Source: Chiloscyllium plagiosum (Eukaryota). Taken from it: a stretch of 43,235 bases of DNA. The stretch is from assembly GCF_004010195.1 (NCBI RefSeq), contig NC_057718.1, forward strand, positions 80,415,484 through 80,458,718. Reading direction: 5' to 3'. Made by a program: the position numbers and the translations under genes. The notes beneath the pieces were generated by a model that searched no databases, was not told the origin of the DNA, and was given only the letters and a program-made list of their open reading frames with translations. Within the stretch, counting starts at the first letter, position 1. Each line of letters begins with the position of its first letter. This document shows positions 1-8,972 of the stretch, in pieces.

Positions 1-268
1 TGGAGGGTCCCAAGGCAGAAGATGAGGTGTTCTCCTTCCAGGCGTCGGGTGGTAAGGGAGTGGCGATGGAGGAGGCCCTGCACCTGCATGTCCTCGGCAA
101 AGTGGGGGGGGGGGGGTTTAAGTGTTCAGCCATGGGACAGTGGGGTTGATTGGTGCGGGTGTTCCAGAGATGTTCTCTGAAGCACTCTGCAAGTAGGCGT
201 CTTGTCTCCCCAATGTAGAGGAGACCACATCAGGAGCAATGGATACAACAAATGACGTGTGGAAGTGA
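1..268 (-). mobile_element. Penelope-like element fragment (GIY-YIG endonuclease region), runs off the window start; interrupts the ERV integrase
   Basis: Minus strand reads ICCIHCS*CGLLYIGETRRLLAECFREHLWNTRTNQPHCPMAEH, a GIY-YIG motif; homologous to 42950-43235. Confidence 0.85.
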
Positions 269-271
269 GAG

Positions 272-815
272 ATGAGTGGGCTAGAGCCACTGCTAGGATT
301 AGACCCATCTGAGCCAGAAGTAGATGGAATAATGAAATATAAGTGGTTTAGAGTATAACTAATATGGGAAGGAAGAAATAACAAAATAAGATTCACTTGA
401 CTCCAAGACAAAGCCAATGGAGCTTCAGGTGATGCAACAGGTAATGATACCTGTTCATCAAAAAACATCTTTCTTGGCCTCTGGATTTGCAGGACCATAC
501 GAAGTGATAAACAAAGCAAGTCCATCAGTATACAAGATGCTAATAGCCCCTATCAAGCATGGCTGGTATCATATTAACCAGTTAAAACCATTTGAAGGGG
601 GCCATAATAATTATCACTATTCACACATAATGTTGGGAGAATGTGATACCCCAGAGTCTGGGCACTTAGACTGGGACTGGTTTTGGAACCCAGACAAGGG
701 GATTGTGGGATCAGAGCAACCTGAACAAATTGGACATCTGGAAAGTATAACATTATCTCCCATCTCCTTAGGGGTCAGATGGACTCCTCAGGCTCACCAA
801 TGGAAATTAAAATAA
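272..815 (+). pseudogene. pol: pol integrase C-terminal region with GPY/F module plus a C-terminal extension
   Basis: ORF 417-815 reads LQVMQQVMI...GFAGPYEVINKASPSVYKM...WYHINQLKPF, the GPY/F module of Gypsy/retroviral integrases; upstream codons carry stops and frameshifts. Confidence 0.8.
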
Positions 816-1151
816 AGGAAAAAGGAAAAGGGGAACAAAATGGATGAAACACCCACCCTCCAACTGAAATGGATGACAGGAAGGGATGGTAGGCTGAAAC
901 CTTGATGTACATGAATTGAATGAGGGGGTGAAGACATTCACACTATAAATATAATAAAAGGAATAAAATCTGATTGACTACAGATAAAAGCTGAAACTAC
1001 ATTTGTTATGTAAGAAGAAGGGCCAGCATGAGAACATGAAAATCAATATCTTTGTTTTCCTTGGAATGAGGGTTCCTTCCATGGTGAATGCTTTGACTAA
1101 TATTTTTTATGAACAAGAGAAAATAACATTGGTTGATTGTGAACATATTAA

Positions 1152-2156
1152 ATAGAGTCATGGAGTCACACAGTACAGAACCAGACCTTTTGGTCCAACC
1201 TGTCCATGCTGAACTTAATCCCAAACTAAACTACTCCTACCTGCCTGCTCCTGGCCTACATCTCTTCTAACCTTTCCTATTCACGTATCTATCCAAATGT
1301 CTTTTAAACATTGCAATTGTGCCCACATCCACTACTTTCTCAGGAAGTTCATTCCACACGCGAACAATCCTCTGTGTAAACAATTTTCCTCATATGTCTT
1401 TTTTTAAATCTCTCTCTTCTCACCTTAAAAATGTGCCCTCTAGTCTTGATTTTCCCCATCCCAGGGAAAAGACAACTACCATTAACTCATAGATAGATCT
1501 CTCATTATTTTATAAACTTCGATCAGATCGCTTCTCAACCTCCTACAGTCCAGTGAAAAAAGTCCCAGACTATCCAGCCTTTCTTTATAATTCAAACCTT
1601 CTATATCCAGCAACATCTTGGTAAATCTCTTCTGAACCTGCTCCAGGTTGATAATGTCTCTTCTATAACTGGGCGACCAGAACTGGACACAGTATTCCAG
1701 AAGCAGCCTCACCAATATCCTGTACAACCTCAGCATGACTTACAACTCTTAAACTGAAAATGTGTTGCTGGAAAAGTGCAGCAGGTCAGGCAGCATCCAA
1801 GGAGCAGGACAATCGATGTTTCGGGCATGGGCCCTTCTTCGGGCTCATGCCCGAAACATCAATTCTCCTGCTCCTTGGATGCTGCCTGACCTGCTGCGCT
1901 TTTCCAGCAACACATTTTCAGCTCTGATCTCCAGCATCTGCAGTCCTCACTTTCTCTTACAACTCTTATACTCAAATAACTGAGCAATGAAGGCAAGTGT
2001 GCCAAACACATTTTTACCTACACTGTCTATATGTGACGCAAACTTCAAAGAATTATGTATCTGCACCCCAAGGTCCCTCTGTTCTACAACACAACTCAAG
2101 GCCCTAACATTAATTGTGAAAGCCCTATCCTTGTTTGTTATACCAAAATGCAATAC
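1152..2156 (-). mobile_element. CR1 LINE 3' fragment inserted in env
   Basis: ORFs 1947-2153 (MHFGITNK...VVEQRDLGVQIHNSLK) and 1482-1736 (LYRILVRLLLEYCVQFWSP...RLRSDLIEVYKIM) match CR1 ORF2 C-terminus; microsatellite-type tail at ~1152-1168. Confidence 0.92.
1752..1955. mobile_element. Short palindromic Penelope pLTR-derived element inserted in the CR1, with 13-bp TSD
   Basis: TSD CTTACAACTCTTA at 1739-1751 and 1956-1968; ~80-bp inverted arms around a TTCTTC loop; same sequence family as 9655-9772 and 42587-42710. Confidence 0.88.
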
Positions 2157-2545
2157 ATGTTTGAATAAATGTCACAGTAATGGTCATGTGTGGGAAGAAA
2201 TGTAGGCTTTTGTATCACCATGACCTGTCCCTGGATAGTTCCAAACCTACTGTCCAATCTTTGCTCCGGTGACCAAGAAAGCAGAATTATCCATTACATG
2301 GTCTGCGCCAAAATTAATCCTGACTTGACTTACATTGTTCAAGGAAAAATTTCCTAAAGCTCCAAATTTGCATGCAACTATGAGTCCAATAGACACAATA
2401 ATGGTGGGATGTAAGCCTGGGGTTATCCCAAGGTTCAGATACGTTGAGGAAAGTTTAGCTGTGTGTCCAGCAATAGGATCATCTTTCATGCTTTACAGGG
2501 ATGATCCACCCATTAGTACAACTCAACGTACTACCACAATGACCC

Positions 2546-3240
2546 ATAAGACAGTAAGACATAGGAGCAGAACTTAGGCCGTTTTACCCATTGAATCTGT
2601 TCCACCATTCAATCATGGCTGATATGTTTATCAACCCCATTTTCCCCACTTTCTCCCATAACCTTTGATCCCCTTGGCAATTAAGGATTCATCTATCTCT
2701 GTTTTAAATACACTCAATGACCAGGCTTCCATAGCCTTGTGTGGCAATGAATTCCATAGATTCACCACTCTCTGGCTAAAGTTTCTCCTTATTTCCATTC
2801 TAAAGGGTCTTCATCTTCCCTTTACTCTAAGGCTGTGACCTTGGGTTCTCGCCTCTCCGGCCAATGGAAACATCTTCCCAAGGTTCACTCTGTCGAGGTT
2901 GTTCAGTATTCTGTAAGTTCCGATCAGATCCATCCTCATTCTTCTAAACTCCATCAAGTATAGTCCCAGAGTCTTCAAACGCTCCTCATATGCTAAGTCT
3001 TCCATTCCTGGATCATTCTTGTGAATGTCCTCTGGACCCGATCCAGGTCCAATACATCCTTCCTGAGGTATGAGGCCCAAAATTGCTCACAGTACTCTAA
3101 ATGTGGACTGACCAGAGCTTTATAAAACCTCAGAAGTACATCTCTGTTTTTATGTTCTAGTCCTCTTGAGATGAATGACAACATTGTATTATCAACTACC
3201 AACTCAAACTGCAAGTTTACCTCAAGAGAAACCTGGACCC
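2546..3240 (-). mobile_element. CR1 LINE 3' fragment inserted in env
   Basis: ORFs 2993-3214 and 2811-3080 (FYKALVSPHLEYCEQFW; YEERLKTLGLYLMEFRRMR); GACCC at both junctions (2541-2545, 3236-3240). Confidence 0.92.
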
Positions 3241-5154
3241 CTGGAACGAGCTCAGAACCACGGTGTAGCGAATCACTGAGAGATACAGGGGAAGTAGGAT
3301 TAGTTCTGGAAGAGATAGTTTCTCTAGTACCAGGACATAGACACTAACTGGCAGTGTTTAACCTGATGGAGATGCAGGTGCCATCCTGATGTGATAGCAC
3401 AATCCGGTAGCTCTTCAACCACCTCCTCCAGAGTCAACTTTGTCATGGTGAATCTAGATCAGAAAGAAAAAGGAGGACGAACGGGTTGATAGAGTTAGCG
3501 GAAGCAGGCTATGCATCAGTGATAGCGACTGTTAACACCACTGATATAGTAGAATTGGAGGGTTAGCTAAGTTCCCTCAGGCAAAGATGAGGATAATAGT
3601 AGGTCAGGAATATTGGGGCTAAAAACAGATGGGTAGGAGAGGACAGCAAGCAGCACAGGTATCCCTAAGCACCATCAAAATGTTAAGACCCCTTATTAAT
3701 AATGAGATAATAAACAGAATAGCCTTTGAAGCAACTTGCAGTGATAAAGCAGCATTTTGTTCAACACAGACCAGCTCATTCTGTCTATGGTTCACACAAA
3801 TATGTTGCGATTAGATGCGCAAAGCATACCAGATTGAGTGTCAGATGAGGAACTGAGGACATGGGTAGGGAGAAGATGCCCCTCAGAAGTCTCATTCTTA
3901 CCAATCAGGGCTTCGTACCTGTGATGGTAATAAAGGTCAGCCAAACATTGTTCATATATCAAAACATGGGGACAATCTGACACATTCCCTAATGCGAGTT
4001 CATAATATGGGTAAATACCATGTTTTGGTATTTACATAACTTGGATATTATTAAGTAACCCACCAATCCATGCTATAGTTCGAGAGAGATATAAAAAGTG
4101 AGTGGATTTATCCTGATGCCATCAAGGGGGAAACCACAGGGCATGTCCGAAAGAAATTATCAAAGAGGAGCTAACTCCGTGTGGGTTTACCTCTTATGAG
4201 AACCATTCATTGCCTATTCTATCAGTTAATAATAAACCTTTCTTAAGTATGCCTTAGTAGGAGACACCTATGTCGCCACAGCAGTCTCAGAATACCAAAA
4301 AGGAAGGACATGGTATATTTTAGATGGACAGAATGTGGCAATCAGCAATATCTCTTCTGACTTGACCACTAACCATAAAGTTTTATTTAAGCCAGAACCC
4401 AATGATAAAGCATGCATAACTCTATCCATCCAGCCAAATGATACAAGTGATGATTTACGCCAATTCGTAGCTACAGAACATCCACCTATTTCATAGTTCA
4501 CTGCAGACAGGGTGAAGATCATTTTTGAGGCAAAGTGAGTTATCCATAAATAGGAAACACATGATAAAGATTAAAAGTCATGCAGAAGATGCAGAGAGAG
4601 ACTTGCAGGCTTCCCAGTTTCTGGAGTAAAATTTGGAATTGGGGACTGAACGCTCAGGTCCACCCGTGGATCAAGATTGTGACTCATGATTGTTCTATTA
4701 CAATTTGATATACTTACTGTTGTAATACTTAACTTTGTGTTTTAACAAACAAAGTAAGAAATGGAAGGGACTGTAAGATACCAAAAGATAGCTCGTATGG
4801 GAAAGAATCTGTAAAGACTTATTATAGGGTAGGAATAACGTAAATATAGCTAGTTTGTAGTATTTCTTACTATTCATTCGTCATTTGTATTGATATTATA
4901 TGTATCTTACAAGATGCGAAATGTGCATAAAAATGTATTTACGATGGAACGAGACTGATTTGCAATCTTTTGAATGTTTATGACAATTGTTTAGAAAAGT
5001 ATAATGATCTAAATGGCATTTCAGATAACACAACTGAAGTAATGCTTCATTGAGCATACAGTACTGTAAGGAGGTAATGCTCACCGTTGTCTGGAGGTGC
5101 CCTGGAGGATGTGGCAAAACCAATAAAGATGATCCTCAGACAAATATTTGGATC

Positions 5155-5166
5155 AAAAGGGGGAGA
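5155..5166 (+). promoter_or_regulatory. Polypurine tract of the ERV
   Basis: AAAAGGGGGAGA directly before the LTR start TGTTGGA. Confidence 0.8.
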
Positions 5167-8100
5167 TGTTGGATAAGGCTGAAGATAACAGGAAGATAAC
5201 ATGATTTGGAGAAGCTGGTGTTGGACTGGGGTGTACAAAGTTATAAATCACACAACACCAGGTTATAGTCCAACAGGTTTAATTGGAAGCACACTACCTT
5301 TCATGCAGTTTTTGAACAAAGTGCAATGTAACTCTGCAAGTACAAATTCACCCCACAAATATATATGTATATATGTGTATGTGTATGTGTATGTATATGT
5401 GTATGTGTATGTGCGAGAGAGCGAGAGGTTGTGACCGTGAGAGTGTATATGTGTGTATGTGAGTGTAGAGTGTCTTAAACCTGTGAGGGGATGCATGTGT
5501 GAGTGTGGGAGTGGGTGTGTTGAGTCCGTGTGTATAGGAGTGCCTATGTGTGTGTGTGCGCGCATGTGTGTTTAGGAGTGTCCATGTGTGTGTATAGTGC
5601 AATGGTGGTCACCTGTAGTGTGACATGAACCCAAGGTCCCGGTTGAGGCCTTCCATATGGGTACAGAACTTAGCTATCAGCCTCTGCTCGGCCATTTTTC
5701 ACTGCTGCCTGTCCTGAAGTCCCCTTACCCGAAGGTCCAAGTTCAAATATCCTGGACCGCTGAAGTGTTCCCCAAGTGAGAGGAAACACTCCTGTCTGTT
5801 GATTGTTGTGCCCATTCATCCGTTGCCGTAGCCTTTGCTCGGTTTCCCCAATGTACCATGCCCAGGGCATCCCTGCCTGCAACGAATAAGATAGGCAACG
5901 TTGGCTGAGTCACATGAGCACCTGCCATGTATATGGTGGGAGGTGTCCCCACGTGTAATGGTGGTATTCATGTCCACACTCTCACACGTCTTGCAGCGCC
6001 TACCGTGACAGGGTTGTATGGAGTTGTCCTGAGAGCCGGGCAGCTTGCTATGAACAATGATCTGTTTGAAGTTTGGCAGTTGTTTAAAGGCAAACAGTGG
6101 AGGTGTAGGGAAGGTCTTGGCGACCTGCTCATCCTCATTGATAATGTGTTGCAGGTCACGAAGAACATGGCGTAGCTTTTCAGCTCCTGGGAAGTACTGA
6201 ACAACGAAGGGTACCCTGTCGGTTGCAGCACGTTTATGGTCGAGTGTGGTGCTAAACAAAACTAAATAAAACTGATAAAACTACACATTGATATTAACAG
6301 GTTTCATCCCATCATCAAACTCACCATGAGCTACTCTCGACTATCTGTCTCATTCTTGGACACATGCATCTCCATCAAGGATGAACACCACAGCACCACA
6401 CTCTACCACAAACTCTCAGACAACCTCACAAATGCTACACTTCTCCAGCTTCCACCCAAAACATATTAAAACAAGCCCTACGTGTACACCGGATCTGTTC
6501 AGATGAGGAAGAACATGACGGACACCTGGAAGTACTCAGGGATGCCCTCAGAAGAACGGGGTACCATGCTCAACTCATCAACCGCCAGTTGCGACATGCC
6601 ACAGCAAGGAACCGTAATGACCTCCTCAGAAAACAGACACATGCTGCAACCGACAGGGTACCCTTTGTTGTTCAGTACCGCCAAACCTCAAACAGATCAT
6701 TGTTTGTAGCAAGCTGCCTGGCTTTCAGGACAACTCCATACAACCGTGTCACGGTAGGCGCTGCAAGACGTGTCAGAGTGTGGACATGGATACCACCATT
6801 ACACGTGGGGACATCTCCCACCATGTACGTGGCAGGTATTCATGTGACTCAGCCAACGTTGTCTATCTTATACGTTGCAGGCAAGGATGCCCTGGGGCAT
6901 GGTACATTGGGGAAACTGAACAAAGGCTACGGCAACAGATGAATGGGCACCGCATAACAATCAATAGACAGGAGTGTTCCCTCCCAGCTGGAGAACACTT
7001 CAGTGGTCCAGGACATTCGACCTCGGACCTTCGGCTGACCATCCCCCAAGGCGGACTTCAGGACAGGCAGCAACGAAAAGTAGCCAAGCAGAGGCTGATA
7101 GCTAAGTTCCATACCCATAGGGAGGGCCTCAACTGGGACCTTGGGTTCATGTCACACTATAGGTGACCACCATTGCACTATACACACCCACACACACCCT
7201 TATAGACACACACACTCCCACACGCACCCCCTCACAGATTTAAGACACTCTACACTCACATACACACATATACACTTTCTCTCACACTCATAACCCCCAA
7301 GCCAGACAGACAGACACACACAAACACACACACACAAAGACCCACATGCACACATGTACATATATGTTTGTGGGGTGAATTTGTACTTGCAGAGTTACAT
7401 TGCACTTTGCTCAAAAACTGCATGAATTTATGTAAGACTCCGTTATCTCACTTTTTAGATTAGAATCAGTCTAAACATTATGGCACAGACGGAGAATACA
7501 GGGGGCTAACACCTTCAACATATTGTCTAGCTAACACCAATTGTTACAGTTAACCTGAGAATACAACCTTTAAAAAAGGTTTTGTAATTTACACATGAAA
7601 GAAATGAAACTATCATGGTATTCAAACAGATGAAAGACTCCACAAAAAAATCAAGATATTTTTCAATGTATAATTTCAGTTACATCCCACTGTAAACTTT
7701 TGCGATAAGTTCTGTGTCTTACAATTATGCCCTCCACAACCATCTGATGAGGGAGTGGCTCTTCGAATTAAACCTGTTGGACTATAACCTGGTGTTGTGT
7801 GATTTTTAAGGAAGATAACAGGAACTGATAAGAGGCCTAACAATGGGCTGCTATGTGAAGGGAAGTATGCGGAGTCAGACAGATCTGTTAATAGTTAAAA
7901 CTACATGAAACCAGGAACTGCTGGCTCTACCAGATAAAGCATACATTGGGACAAAACATTTAGGATTGTACATATGCATGGATAAGTCCCAATAAGACAC
8001 ACATTTGCACAAAACGTTTGGGACTGGTCATGGGCACACATAATTCCAAATAAGGCACATCGTTGATACAGAGACTTGTGTATAAAAACCCTGAAGAAAT

Positions 8101-8419
8101 CCCTTTGTTCAACAACATTTAGAAGACTAACATTGTAAAAAGGTACCCTATGTCAGGAGGCGTGATGAAGATGTCGAGCACAGCTTTCAGCCTGGCCAGC
8201 TACAAACTCTCCCAGGTAATAACGTTTGGGTTTAGTTACAGAAATCAGGGTAGTGAAAGACGACGATTGAGATATCTTTCGTAGCTAAATGTGTGTTCAA
8301 GTACTTAGGAAATGAATTGTGGCTTTATAGAGCTCTAAGTGTCTCTGCTGTCTCTTCTTCTATGAATGTACTGTGGTCTCTCGGAAACGGGCAACACACT
8401 CTGGTTCTCACTTCCAACA
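5167..8419 (+). repeat. ERV 3' LTR (~635 bp once reconstructed from 5167-5201 plus 7821-8419), split by a Penelope insertion
   Basis: Perfect 7-bp terminal inverted repeat TGTTGGA/TCCAACA; TATAAAA at 8081-8087; the halves rejoin at the AGGAAGATAACA duplication. Confidence 0.8.
5202..7808. mobile_element. Penelope-like element with inverted structure: minus arm 5202-6253, plus arm 6254-7808; 12-bp TSD
   Basis: TSD AGGAAGATAACA at 5190-5201 and 7809-7820. Plus arm has RT C-terminus (DINRFHPIIKLTMSYS...SFLDTCISIK) and GIY-YIG (NVVYLIRCRQGCPGAWYIGETEQRLRQ, ORF 6780-7166); minus arm mirrors it (ORF 5816-6259). CA/TG-rich 3' UTR on both arms. Confidence 0.92.
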
Positions 8420-8972
8420 ACGTAGATTCTAATTGAGAAACTGAATCTTGTCCAAGGGCAATTATACTATCTTTGACCAAGACTGCTACACCCCCACCTC
8501 CATTTTTACCCACCCCTGTTTCTACTAAAGCTTTATAACTCAGGATGTTAAGTACCCAGTCCTGTCTAGCTTGAGCCAGCATCTCTGTCAACGCTACTAA
8601 GTCATAATCTCCTAGAATAATTTCTGGTTCCTGTCGCCCATGTTGTTTGCTGAACTCTGCGCATTTTTATACACACATTTTAAATCCACTCATCTCTTTT
8701 TTGCCCATTTGGAAGCAACCATTTCTTTGTACACTGTCACCACTCAAGCCTTCCCTTACTTCTTATTCCCCATCTTCTCTTTTGCCCTCTCTGGTACTTG
8801 CATGACTAGGACCATTATTTAAACCACCCCACTGCCTTACAAGTTTAAATCCATCCCCAGTACACTGTTTACTCTCAGCCAGGAGATTAGTTTCATATCT
8901 GCTCAGGTGGAGCCCATCTCTTCTGAATAGCTCTCTCCTTTCCCAAAAGTGATCCCAATGTCCCAAAAATCT
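8420..8972 (-). mobile_element. Old CR1 LINE, ORF1 esterase C-terminus to ORF2 endonuclease N-terminus; probable ERV integration target
   Basis: ORF 8763-8966 GHWDHFWERRELFRRDGLHL (SGNH esterase-type ORF1); ORF 8325-8591 TEMLAQARQDWVLNILSY...GGGVAVLVKDSI (APE endonuclease), whose homology ends at the LTR end. Confidence 0.85.

Follow-up and report, generated by a model that had tools for sequence, protein, structure and literature searches.

A decayed retroviral env gene in the shark Chiloscyllium plagiosum and its intact relatives with a predicted paramyxovirus F-like fold

We consider it quite probable that the stretch of the Chiloscyllium plagiosum genome analysed here, 43,235 nucleotides of contig NC_057718.1 (C9:80415484-80458718; the window), holds a dead env gene from an ancient endogenous retrovirus (ERV) with many copies, that intact relatives of this env resemble the fusion protein (F) of paramyxoviruses in predicted fold, and that the virus was not a lokiretrovirus. 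The window was searched against the 3.56-Gb genome, and its nearest named proteins are from sharks, with up to 88% identity (Chiloscyllium punctatum). Positions 1036 to about 4840 are a single decayed env gene, broken by two repeat insertions and lying between the C-terminus of integrase (390-650) and the 3' long terminal repeat (LTR) ending at 8396. An F-like architecture is supported because the window env is homologous to an intact relative with an F-like predicted fold, the 714-amino acid protein P0005 of Mustelus asterias.

All parts of the gene are on the plus strand. It starts with an ATG and a hydrophobic, putative signal stretch (1036-1142), homologous to copies L004 and L008 of the family up to position 1142, and continues in a decayed N-terminal part resembling a surface subunit (2146-2543), which aligns with positions 960-1341 of L004 and with copies L008 and L024 and is matched by open reading frames (ORFs) of the family. 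The F2-like end of the N-terminal subunit (3236-3464; GLVLEE ... VFNLMEMQVPS.CDSTIR) is followed by a furin-type site, RKRR (3465-3476), which reads RKRRKR or KKRR in copies L005-L008 and RSKR in P0005. The post-cleavage peptide and a long heptad helix like heptad repeat A (HRA) of F are spread over three frames (3477-3910). Further on are a beta-rich core with a Cys cluster, similar to F domains I/II (3952-4580), the end of a membrane-proximal helix with a Trp-rich stretch (KIWNWGLNAQVHPW; 4568-4708) and a transmembrane (TM)-like segment with a short basic cytoplasmic tail (4690-4840), which matches an ORF of copy L007 (2448-2843). The strings quoted in the original prediction for this DNA are all in place: the ATG with its hydrophobic start (1036), RKRR (3465-3476), VNTTDIVELEG (its end at 3566), AFC...RLDAQSIPD (about 3750-3850), the Cys cluster (4090-4200), FWSKIWNWG..HPW (4568-4708) and the TM-like run (4690-4745). 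Its end of the gene at 4745, with about 420 codons after the cleavage site, has to be extended, since the tail ends at about 4840, giving about 455 codons. The copy in the window is an ordinary dead relic without function, with at least seven frame changes and about 12 stops between 3237 and 4773, as traced by matches to ORFs of the family.

The gene is one of many copies. A DNA search with window 3400-4745 gave at least 54 genomic matches with 68-86% identity (58 candidates, 40 scored), and a protein search with a 138-amino acid open piece of copy L024, covering HRA, gave at least 80 at E<=0.001 (186 candidates, 150 scored). When the same 138-amino acid piece was compared with longer proteins, no homologue was found among 1593 candidates. 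A 374-bp piece of env that runs from the cleavage site to HRA (window about 3423-3803) is found again at nine loci, on C39, C31, C28, C24, C16, C11, C7, C4 and C1, each time with the same scores (73% identity, 218 bits), and looks as if it had been captured and spread by another repeat or by segmental duplication.

Among the 80 protein matches, 21 have no internal stop and 23-25% identity in the HRA region. They represent a second env-bearing ERV family in the same genome, far better preserved than the family of the window. Masked N makes the open frames of these loci look too long, which L030 and L031 illustrate, and a "2089-aa open frame" is such an artefact. At locus L030 (C1:75891300-75895300) an integrase is followed by an env frame (742-3135, minus strand) with 578 visible residues. 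This Env has 13 database relatives, 12 of them shark-named (Chiloscyllium, Mustelus, Pristiophorus and Heterodontus); none of the 13 has a Pfam domain, and a phmmer search of L030 Env against the PDB gave no match. The L030 family has stop-free env frames and, in other sharks, near-identical annotated proteins. P0005 looks complete, with a signal-like start, RSKR at residues 249-252, long helices, a TM segment and a short tail, and its Trp-rich stretch is KVWDWGLNVNIHPW.

A profile of the 13 Env sequences retrieved 60 proteins at E<=1e-3 from a library of 1.84 billion proteins. Ten of these were looked up and included proteins from a skate and from the frogs Mantella aurantiaca (a cluster of 16 members), Pelodytes ibericus and Xenopus tropicalis, as well as one bacterial false positive and two gene-model chimeras. 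Stretches matching the env profile are carried by the Pristiophorus gene models P0036 ("Niban 1-like") and P0068 ("cadherin-related family member 5-like") and by P0073, which has a Pfam V-set match; all three are probably annotation chimeras with fragments of ERV env.

The window copy is connected to the intact family in two ways. Its frames give three colinear BLASTP matches with P0005: window 3291-3581 with residues 175-285 (P0001 1-97, E 0.026), 3985-4230 with residues 421-509 (P0003 249-330, E 5e-6) and 4571-4687 with residues 621-659 (P0002 317-355, E 2e-8). In addition, hhalign aligned six natural pieces of the window family with the profile of the intact family at 96.3% probability (E 1.9e-9, 134 columns), an alignment that spans the cleavage site and the HRA helix (P0005 247-380). 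Judged from these alignments, the window env belongs to the Env family of sharks, skate and frogs. A chance mosaic of ORF scraps is ruled out by the 54 genomic DNA matches, the three colinear BLASTP matches and hhalign.

The structure of P0005 was predicted with AlphaFold2 from a 69-row alignment, with a mean pLDDT (predicted local distance difference test) of 67 and a pTM (predicted template modelling score) of 0.47. The model reaches a pLDDT of 80-95 at residues 160-240 and 340-560 and has a helix at 248-366, strands at 399-561 and a TM helix at 652-697. In Foldseek it had 244 matches in the PDB at E<=1e-3, and among the matches listed all are F of paramyxoviruses or pneumoviruses, with human parainfluenza virus 3 (hPIV3) F at the top (5.2e-11), followed by post-fusion respiratory syncytial virus (RSV) F and Langya virus F. 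VIA-align of the best 1000 chains gave 93 with Z>=8, of which the best 50 are all F (Z 11.7-8.2, 229-363 residues aligned), and placed residues 172-640 of the model on residues 25-490, approximately, of F. Foamy virus Env is not among the best 50 of these 93 chains, which does not show that the folds differ. The domain arrangement of F, with an F2-like strand, HRA, beta domains I/II and heptad repeat B, is found in the model, where the equivalent of window 3236-3464 aligns with F2 of hPIV3 F, and the window copy is linked to this arrangement through hhalign. The paramyxovirus and pneumovirus F-like architecture proposed originally for the window is thus borne out by way of the intact relative.

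Predicted viral structures give a broader picture. The P0005 model had 56 matches in BFVD at E<=1e-3, including arli-, lispi- and chu-like glycoproteins, baculovirus F and paramyxovirus F0. Retroviral proteins were found at rank 5 (Env of walleye epidermal hyperplasia virus 1, WEHV-1; 6.8e-13, Q9WHI8), rank 8 (Env of walleye dermal sarcoma virus, WDSV; 5.7e-11, A4GTG3) and rank 40 (feline foamy virus Env; 1.7e-5). The Envs of these exogenous epsilonretroviruses (Q9WHI8 and A4GTG3) match the shark model better than foamy virus Env does. When the env profile was compared with PDB sequences, the only significant matches were foamy virus Env chains (7.9e-4, 9e-4 and 2e-3), in the beta core of the TM subunit.

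No CX6CC motif was found in the ectodomain of P0005, P0031 or P0089; the CX6CC of window frame P0002 is off-frame and that of P0050 is inside the TM segment. This agrees with the large fusion subunit without CX6CC that had been noticed in the window, and a gamma-type env is ruled out by the missing ectodomain CX6CC and by a fusion subunit of about 455-460 amino acids.

The intact relatives suggest how the protein might have worked. The precursor would begin with a signal peptide, followed by an N-terminal domain of about 140-240 amino acids, and a furin-type protease would cut it at RKRR. The cut would release a fusion subunit of about 455 amino acids with the HRA helix, an F-like beta core with conserved cysteines, a second helix, the Trp-rich stretch, a TM segment and a short tail. 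A class I trimer of this kind may then refold to a helical bundle and bring about membrane fusion in the manner of paramyxovirus F and foamy virus Env. All three steps, cleavage, formation of the trimer and fusion, are inferred from the intact relatives by analogy.

The lineage of the virus was sought in its pol. The Pol set consisted of the best 120 of 165 proteins (E<=1e-10) retrieved with the L030 integrase as query, which were then compared with the decayed pol of the window. The best matches of the window pol were unnamed proteins, the Xenopus tropicalis protein P0157 and two Latimeria proteins. In a tree of 38 rows and 1162 columns (IQ-TREE quick search, support from the Shimodaira-Hasegawa-like approximate likelihood ratio test, SH-aLRT, rooted on a row without canonical RNase H), a clade of eight teleost rows is sister to all other rows. 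The window family falls in a 7-row clade with Latimeria, Xenopus and unnamed rows (support 99), and the sister of this clade has 20 rows that include the L030 integrase, WEHV-1 and the gammaretroviruses (support 99). The tree accordingly places the pol clade of the window as sister to the clade of epsilon- and gammaretroviruses.

The teleost clade was identified as lokiretroviral with the supplement of PMC7947760, in whose sequences the reverse transcriptase (RT) stretch of P0175 (Labeo rohita) is found identically in Loki-Lro, and two 20-residue motifs of the clade have 17 and 20 occurrences among the loki sequences. When the window family was forced together with the loki rows, the log-likelihood dropped by 66.6 and the approximately unbiased (AU) test gave a p-AU of 0.0006; the tested clade was named after the tree had been seen, and the hypothesis itself came from the original prediction. 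That proposal, of a lokiretrovirus-like element, is not upheld: the window pol lies outside loki in the coelacanth/Xenopus clade, and neither a match to PF00523 (Fusion_gly) nor the env profile links the env to the teleost loki Env. On the evidence of pol, the virus is not a lokiretrovirus.

The RT of the window has the motif blocks WP.KKPDGSWRLTIDY, LPQGFHNSPSIFHQ.L.NGL and QYVDDLLL. Compared by eye, these are closest to the RT of snakehead retrovirus (SnRV) given in the supplement of PMC7947760 and unlike the foamy virus, CoeEFV, foamy-like ERV (FLERV) and loki RTs compared. That the window family is SnRV-like has about even odds, on a likeness of motifs seen by eye. The elephant shark is reported to carry SnRV-like ERVs, CmiERV lineage I (Han 2015, PMC4422223), and SnRV Env is not among the best 50 of the 56 BFVD matches. 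The pol clade is unmatched to described lineages among the available references, and a new F-bearing LTR lineage, as the original prediction had it, is possible.

Several observations weigh against the interpretation given here. The fold was modelled for a relative with only 23-25% identity in the HRA region, not for the window copy. The model is middling in its pTM and represents an extended post-fusion-like monomer, because of which the root-mean-square deviations from PDB chains are large, and its residues 30-170 have low confidence and are without a counterpart in F. No Pfam family was found in any env piece, in P0005 or in the frog proteins, and Pfam gave nothing relevant to env in the window frames and 13 ORFs of the family. 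PF00523 had no hmmscan match (E<=10 or E<=1) in window frames, family ORFs, L030 Env, P0005 or the frog proteins. Searched across the whole genome, PF00523 and PF03408 were without a match, a weak result in that the controls gave no signal and the PF03408 search was run under a stricter filter. The weak hydrophobicity of the peptide that follows RKRR sets it apart from the fusion peptides of loki Env and paramyxovirus F. In one shark genome, the window family and the L030 family have homologous env and are found in different, well-supported Pol clades. Finally, the pol row of the window was obtained by reading through a badly decayed gene; it fills 732 of 1136 positions and sits on a long end branch (1.66), and the Pol tree was made by quick search and lacks references for SnRV, foamy viruses, ERV-L and class II.

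P0005 shares with paramyxovirus and pneumovirus F (PF00523) the modelled fold, the furin-type site before a long HRA helix, the second helix and the TM segment. The shark protein differs in an additional Cys-rich N-terminal part of about 140 amino acids (low model confidence), in the weak hydrophobicity of its post-cleavage peptide and in the missing PF00523 match, and it is retroviral, whereas F comes from negative-strand RNA viruses. Baculovirus F and errantivirus ENV also match the model in BFVD (1.9e-11 to 5e-7) and are neighbours by ESM features, but there is no Pfam Baculo_F match, and the window pol is retrovirus-like, with tether and RNase H. According to the accessible part of the study (eLife 2026 / bioRxiv 10.1101/2023.10.26.564294), F-type ENV is carried by LTR elements across invertebrates, and that part reports no vertebrate elements homologous to them.

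One alternative is a foamy-like ERV of the shark and frog "CmiFLERV/XtrFLERV" group with an env that had previously escaped detection, which we regard as unlikely. The foamy virus Env gp130 (PDB 8ozh, 8rm0 and 8rm1) combines a large TM subunit with an F-like fold (PMC11468914), and it is its beta core that gives the only significant PDB sequence matches of the env profile. As far as the available part of the FLERV paper goes, the Xenopus FLERV clusters with shark FLERVs, both with pol only, and these shark and frog hosts are the host pattern of the env family. The prototype foamy virus (PFV) integrase is also the best PDB match of both integrases, but this rank may only mirror the content of the PDB because no MLV-type (murine leukaemia virus) integrase core is among the PDB matches. 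The shark protein has no Pfam match to Foamy_virus_ENV (PF03408) and an N-terminal subunit much shorter than that of foamy virus Env, and in BFVD the Env of feline foamy virus comes at rank 40, after WEHV and WDSV Env. The pol is not foamy-like in motifs or scores: the RT motifs QYVDDLLL and LPQGFHNSP.IFHQ are by eye unlike those of SFV, CoEFV, AciFLERV and AliFLERV (CmiFLERV and XtrFLERV were outside the comparison), the RT of L009, the 10 kb upstream of the window, matches MLV at 1e-17 and foamy virus at 5e-4, and the best 120 of the 165 integrase relatives contain gamma- and epsilonretrovirus Pols but no foamy Pol. The gag also has a CCHC knuckle, and to our knowledge foamy viruses have none in gag.

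An epsilonretrovirus-like (class I) ERV with an Env of the WDSV/WEHV type is very improbable. The predicted structures of these two Envs are the best retroviral matches of the shark model in BFVD, epsilon-like ERVs are known from amphibians and from the elephant shark, a chimaera (PMC4422223), and the integrase of the intact shark family is in the 20-row clade with WEHV-1. However, the window pol is outside that clade with an SH-aLRT of 99 on both sides, and P0157, the named protein closest to it, scores alike against Ty3 (229 bits), MLV RT (228) and foamy PR-RT (228), unlike WEHV-1 Pol (MLV 437 bits, foamy 213, Ty3 167), which suggests that the window lineage is not class I in the narrow sense. 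The env profile retrieved neither WDSV nor WEHV Env, no sequence link being found, and the WDSV and WEHV-1 Envs are about twice as long (1159-1317 amino acids). They are described as distinct and without gamma-type hallmarks in the accessible part of PMC9967133.

Lokiretroviruses have an Env that is likewise retroviral and of F type, with an RXKR-type site, and it matches PF00523 at E 2.2e-7 (PMC7947760). Of its parts, the cleavage site, the long helices and the TM segment are seen in the shark family, and the post-site peptide, strongly hydrophobic in loki, is weakly so. The hosts are five vertebrate classes without Chondrichthyes (PMC7947760), and the supplement of that paper lists six chondrichthyan genomes screened and none positive; one of the six is Chiloscyllium punctatum, which holds the intact env family. 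The original prediction was therefore right about the absence of cartilaginous fish from the first host list. A lokiretrovirus, or a close sister of it, missed by that screen is the least credible alternative: the Envs share their parts list (signal, RXKR-type site, coiled coil, TM), the F-like fold, a Trp-rich membrane-proximal VW.WG.N that is also found in the Xenopus loki Env of the supplement, and homologues in frogs, a loki host group, but the eight loki rows split from the rest as a clade of their own at an SH-aLRT of 99, the AU test rejects the grouping, the RT motifs of the window are by eye unlike those of every loki RT compared, PF00523 gives no match, and no teleost proteins were among the looked-up matches of the env profile.

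The integrase C-termini can hardly be aligned between the window family and the intact family (E 0.13), and this together with the different Pol clades suggests that env and pol may have separate histories. Either the env predates the split of the two Pol clades or it has moved between them. Because foamy Env and the predicted WEHV-1 and WDSV structures also match, F-type Env seems, as far as predicted structures can tell, to be widespread among deep retroviral lineages. A bolder reading is that the Env of sharks, skate and frogs marks a deep unnamed lineage, in which case the F-type fusion protein might be the ancestral retroviral Env and the gamma-type Env a later one. This builds on F-type env on two Pol clades together with foamy viruses (solved), loki (reported) and WEHV/WDSV (predicted), and we regard it as rather doubtful.

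F-type Env was described for lokiretroviruses in 2020 (PMC7947760) and, according to the available text of PMC11468914, solved by cryo-EM for foamy viruses in 2024. Studies of shark and chimaera ERVs report pol only, or no Gag or Env domains, in their accessible parts (PMC5512871 and PMC10699275), and Han (2015) required an Env homologue downstream of pol and left the type of Env undescribed (PMC4422223). In the literature searched, no paper calls a shark ERV Env or an epsilonretrovirus (WDSV/WEHV) Env F-like. What is new here is an F-type retroviral env in cartilaginous fish, on a pol that is not loki; a retroviral lineage is thereby given an env, of F type, and the same env family is seen on two pol clades. 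Together with the WEHV/WDSV matches in BFVD this bears directly on the origin of retroviral Env, where Wang and Han did not decide between four scenarios (PMC7947760), and the question of whether the first retroviral Env was F-like can now be tested with existing genomes.

The env lies in an old provirus of a multi-copy family. The layout is that of an ERV of the Retroviridae type, with LTRs, gag, RT, tether, RNase H and integrase, and env downstream of integrase. The order is LTR, a site like a primer-binding site (PBS), gag with a zinc knuckle, RT, RNase H-like tether, RNase H, integrase, env and LTR; no protease was identified in the provirus, where all of these parts were recognised. In L009, of which the last 2334 bases are masked, Pfam found zf-CCHC (5.5e-4), RVT_1 (0.0026), RT_RNaseH_2 (1.9e-9), Integrase_H2C2 (6.3e-13) and rve (1.8e-6) in this order, and only RT_RNaseH_2 and Integrase_H2C2 pass the curated cut-offs. 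Between these two, the frame-3 translation contains an RNase H-like stretch that aligns with residues 631-681 of P0157. Homology to the family begins at about 300 in the window, where the end of pol (390-815, plus strand) encodes the integrase C-terminus at 390-650 with an SH3-like domain (match at about 450-600; SH3_Tf2-1, E 3.6e-5, under the curated cut-off), the ORF stopping at 815. In copy L024, too, an integrase SH3 domain precedes env.

The 5' LTR ends at L009:83 (...ACAACA), and six bases further on is a TGG-initiated, PBS-like 18-mer (L009 90-107). The 3' LTR (4850-8396, plus strand, start not fixed) ends with ...GCAACA at 8396, has family homology at 4850-5300 and 7500-8396, and is broken at about 5200-7800 by nested repeats. 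Direct comparison of L009 with the window for LTRs gave unrelated repeats only; the pair emerged after mapping of family homology and with 1.8 kb more of upstream sequence, the 5' LTR being recovered without its upstream half. The 5' LTR (L032 and L009 1-83) is 82.8% identical to window 7818-8396 over 588 columns. The Kimura two-parameter distance of 0.179 over 578 sites corresponds to about 41, 90 or 407 million years at neutral rates of 2.2e-9, 1e-9 and 2.2e-10 per site per year, the last being the value assumed by Han for the elephant shark (PMC4422223).

The two insertions in env are at 1143-2145 and 2544-3235, both on the minus strand. The first is absent in copy L008 and the second, with minus-strand ORFs, in copy L024, and both recur in other loci. 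L008 joins window 1142 directly to 2146 (locus 3086 to 3084) and L024 joins 2543 directly to 3236 (locus 5055 to 5057). Since these copies lack the inserts, the limits of both are fixed, and the joins proposed originally (1152/2155 and 2545/3241) are right within 10 nucleotides. Both insertions are thus real, whereas their assignment to CR1 could not be confirmed; their ORF motif resembles the tail of a long interspersed nuclear element (LINE), putatively of CR1 type in the first, and Pfam gave no match in the ORFs of either.

Further repeats surround the env. ORFs are found at window 2-229 (minus), 5816-6280 (minus) and 6385-7166 (plus) and at L009 1053-2056 (minus), with an inverted pair inside the 3' LTR that has TG/CA-rich microsatellites on either side (about 5380-5600 and 7170-7300). 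From their motifs we presume these four ORFs, which had no Pfam match, to be Penelope-like (GIY-YIG-type). An ORF at window 8325-8666 (minus) lies directly at the 3' end of the provirus and matches Exo_endo_phos (E 3.2e-4, under the cut-off); it is probably the endonuclease part of a LINE.

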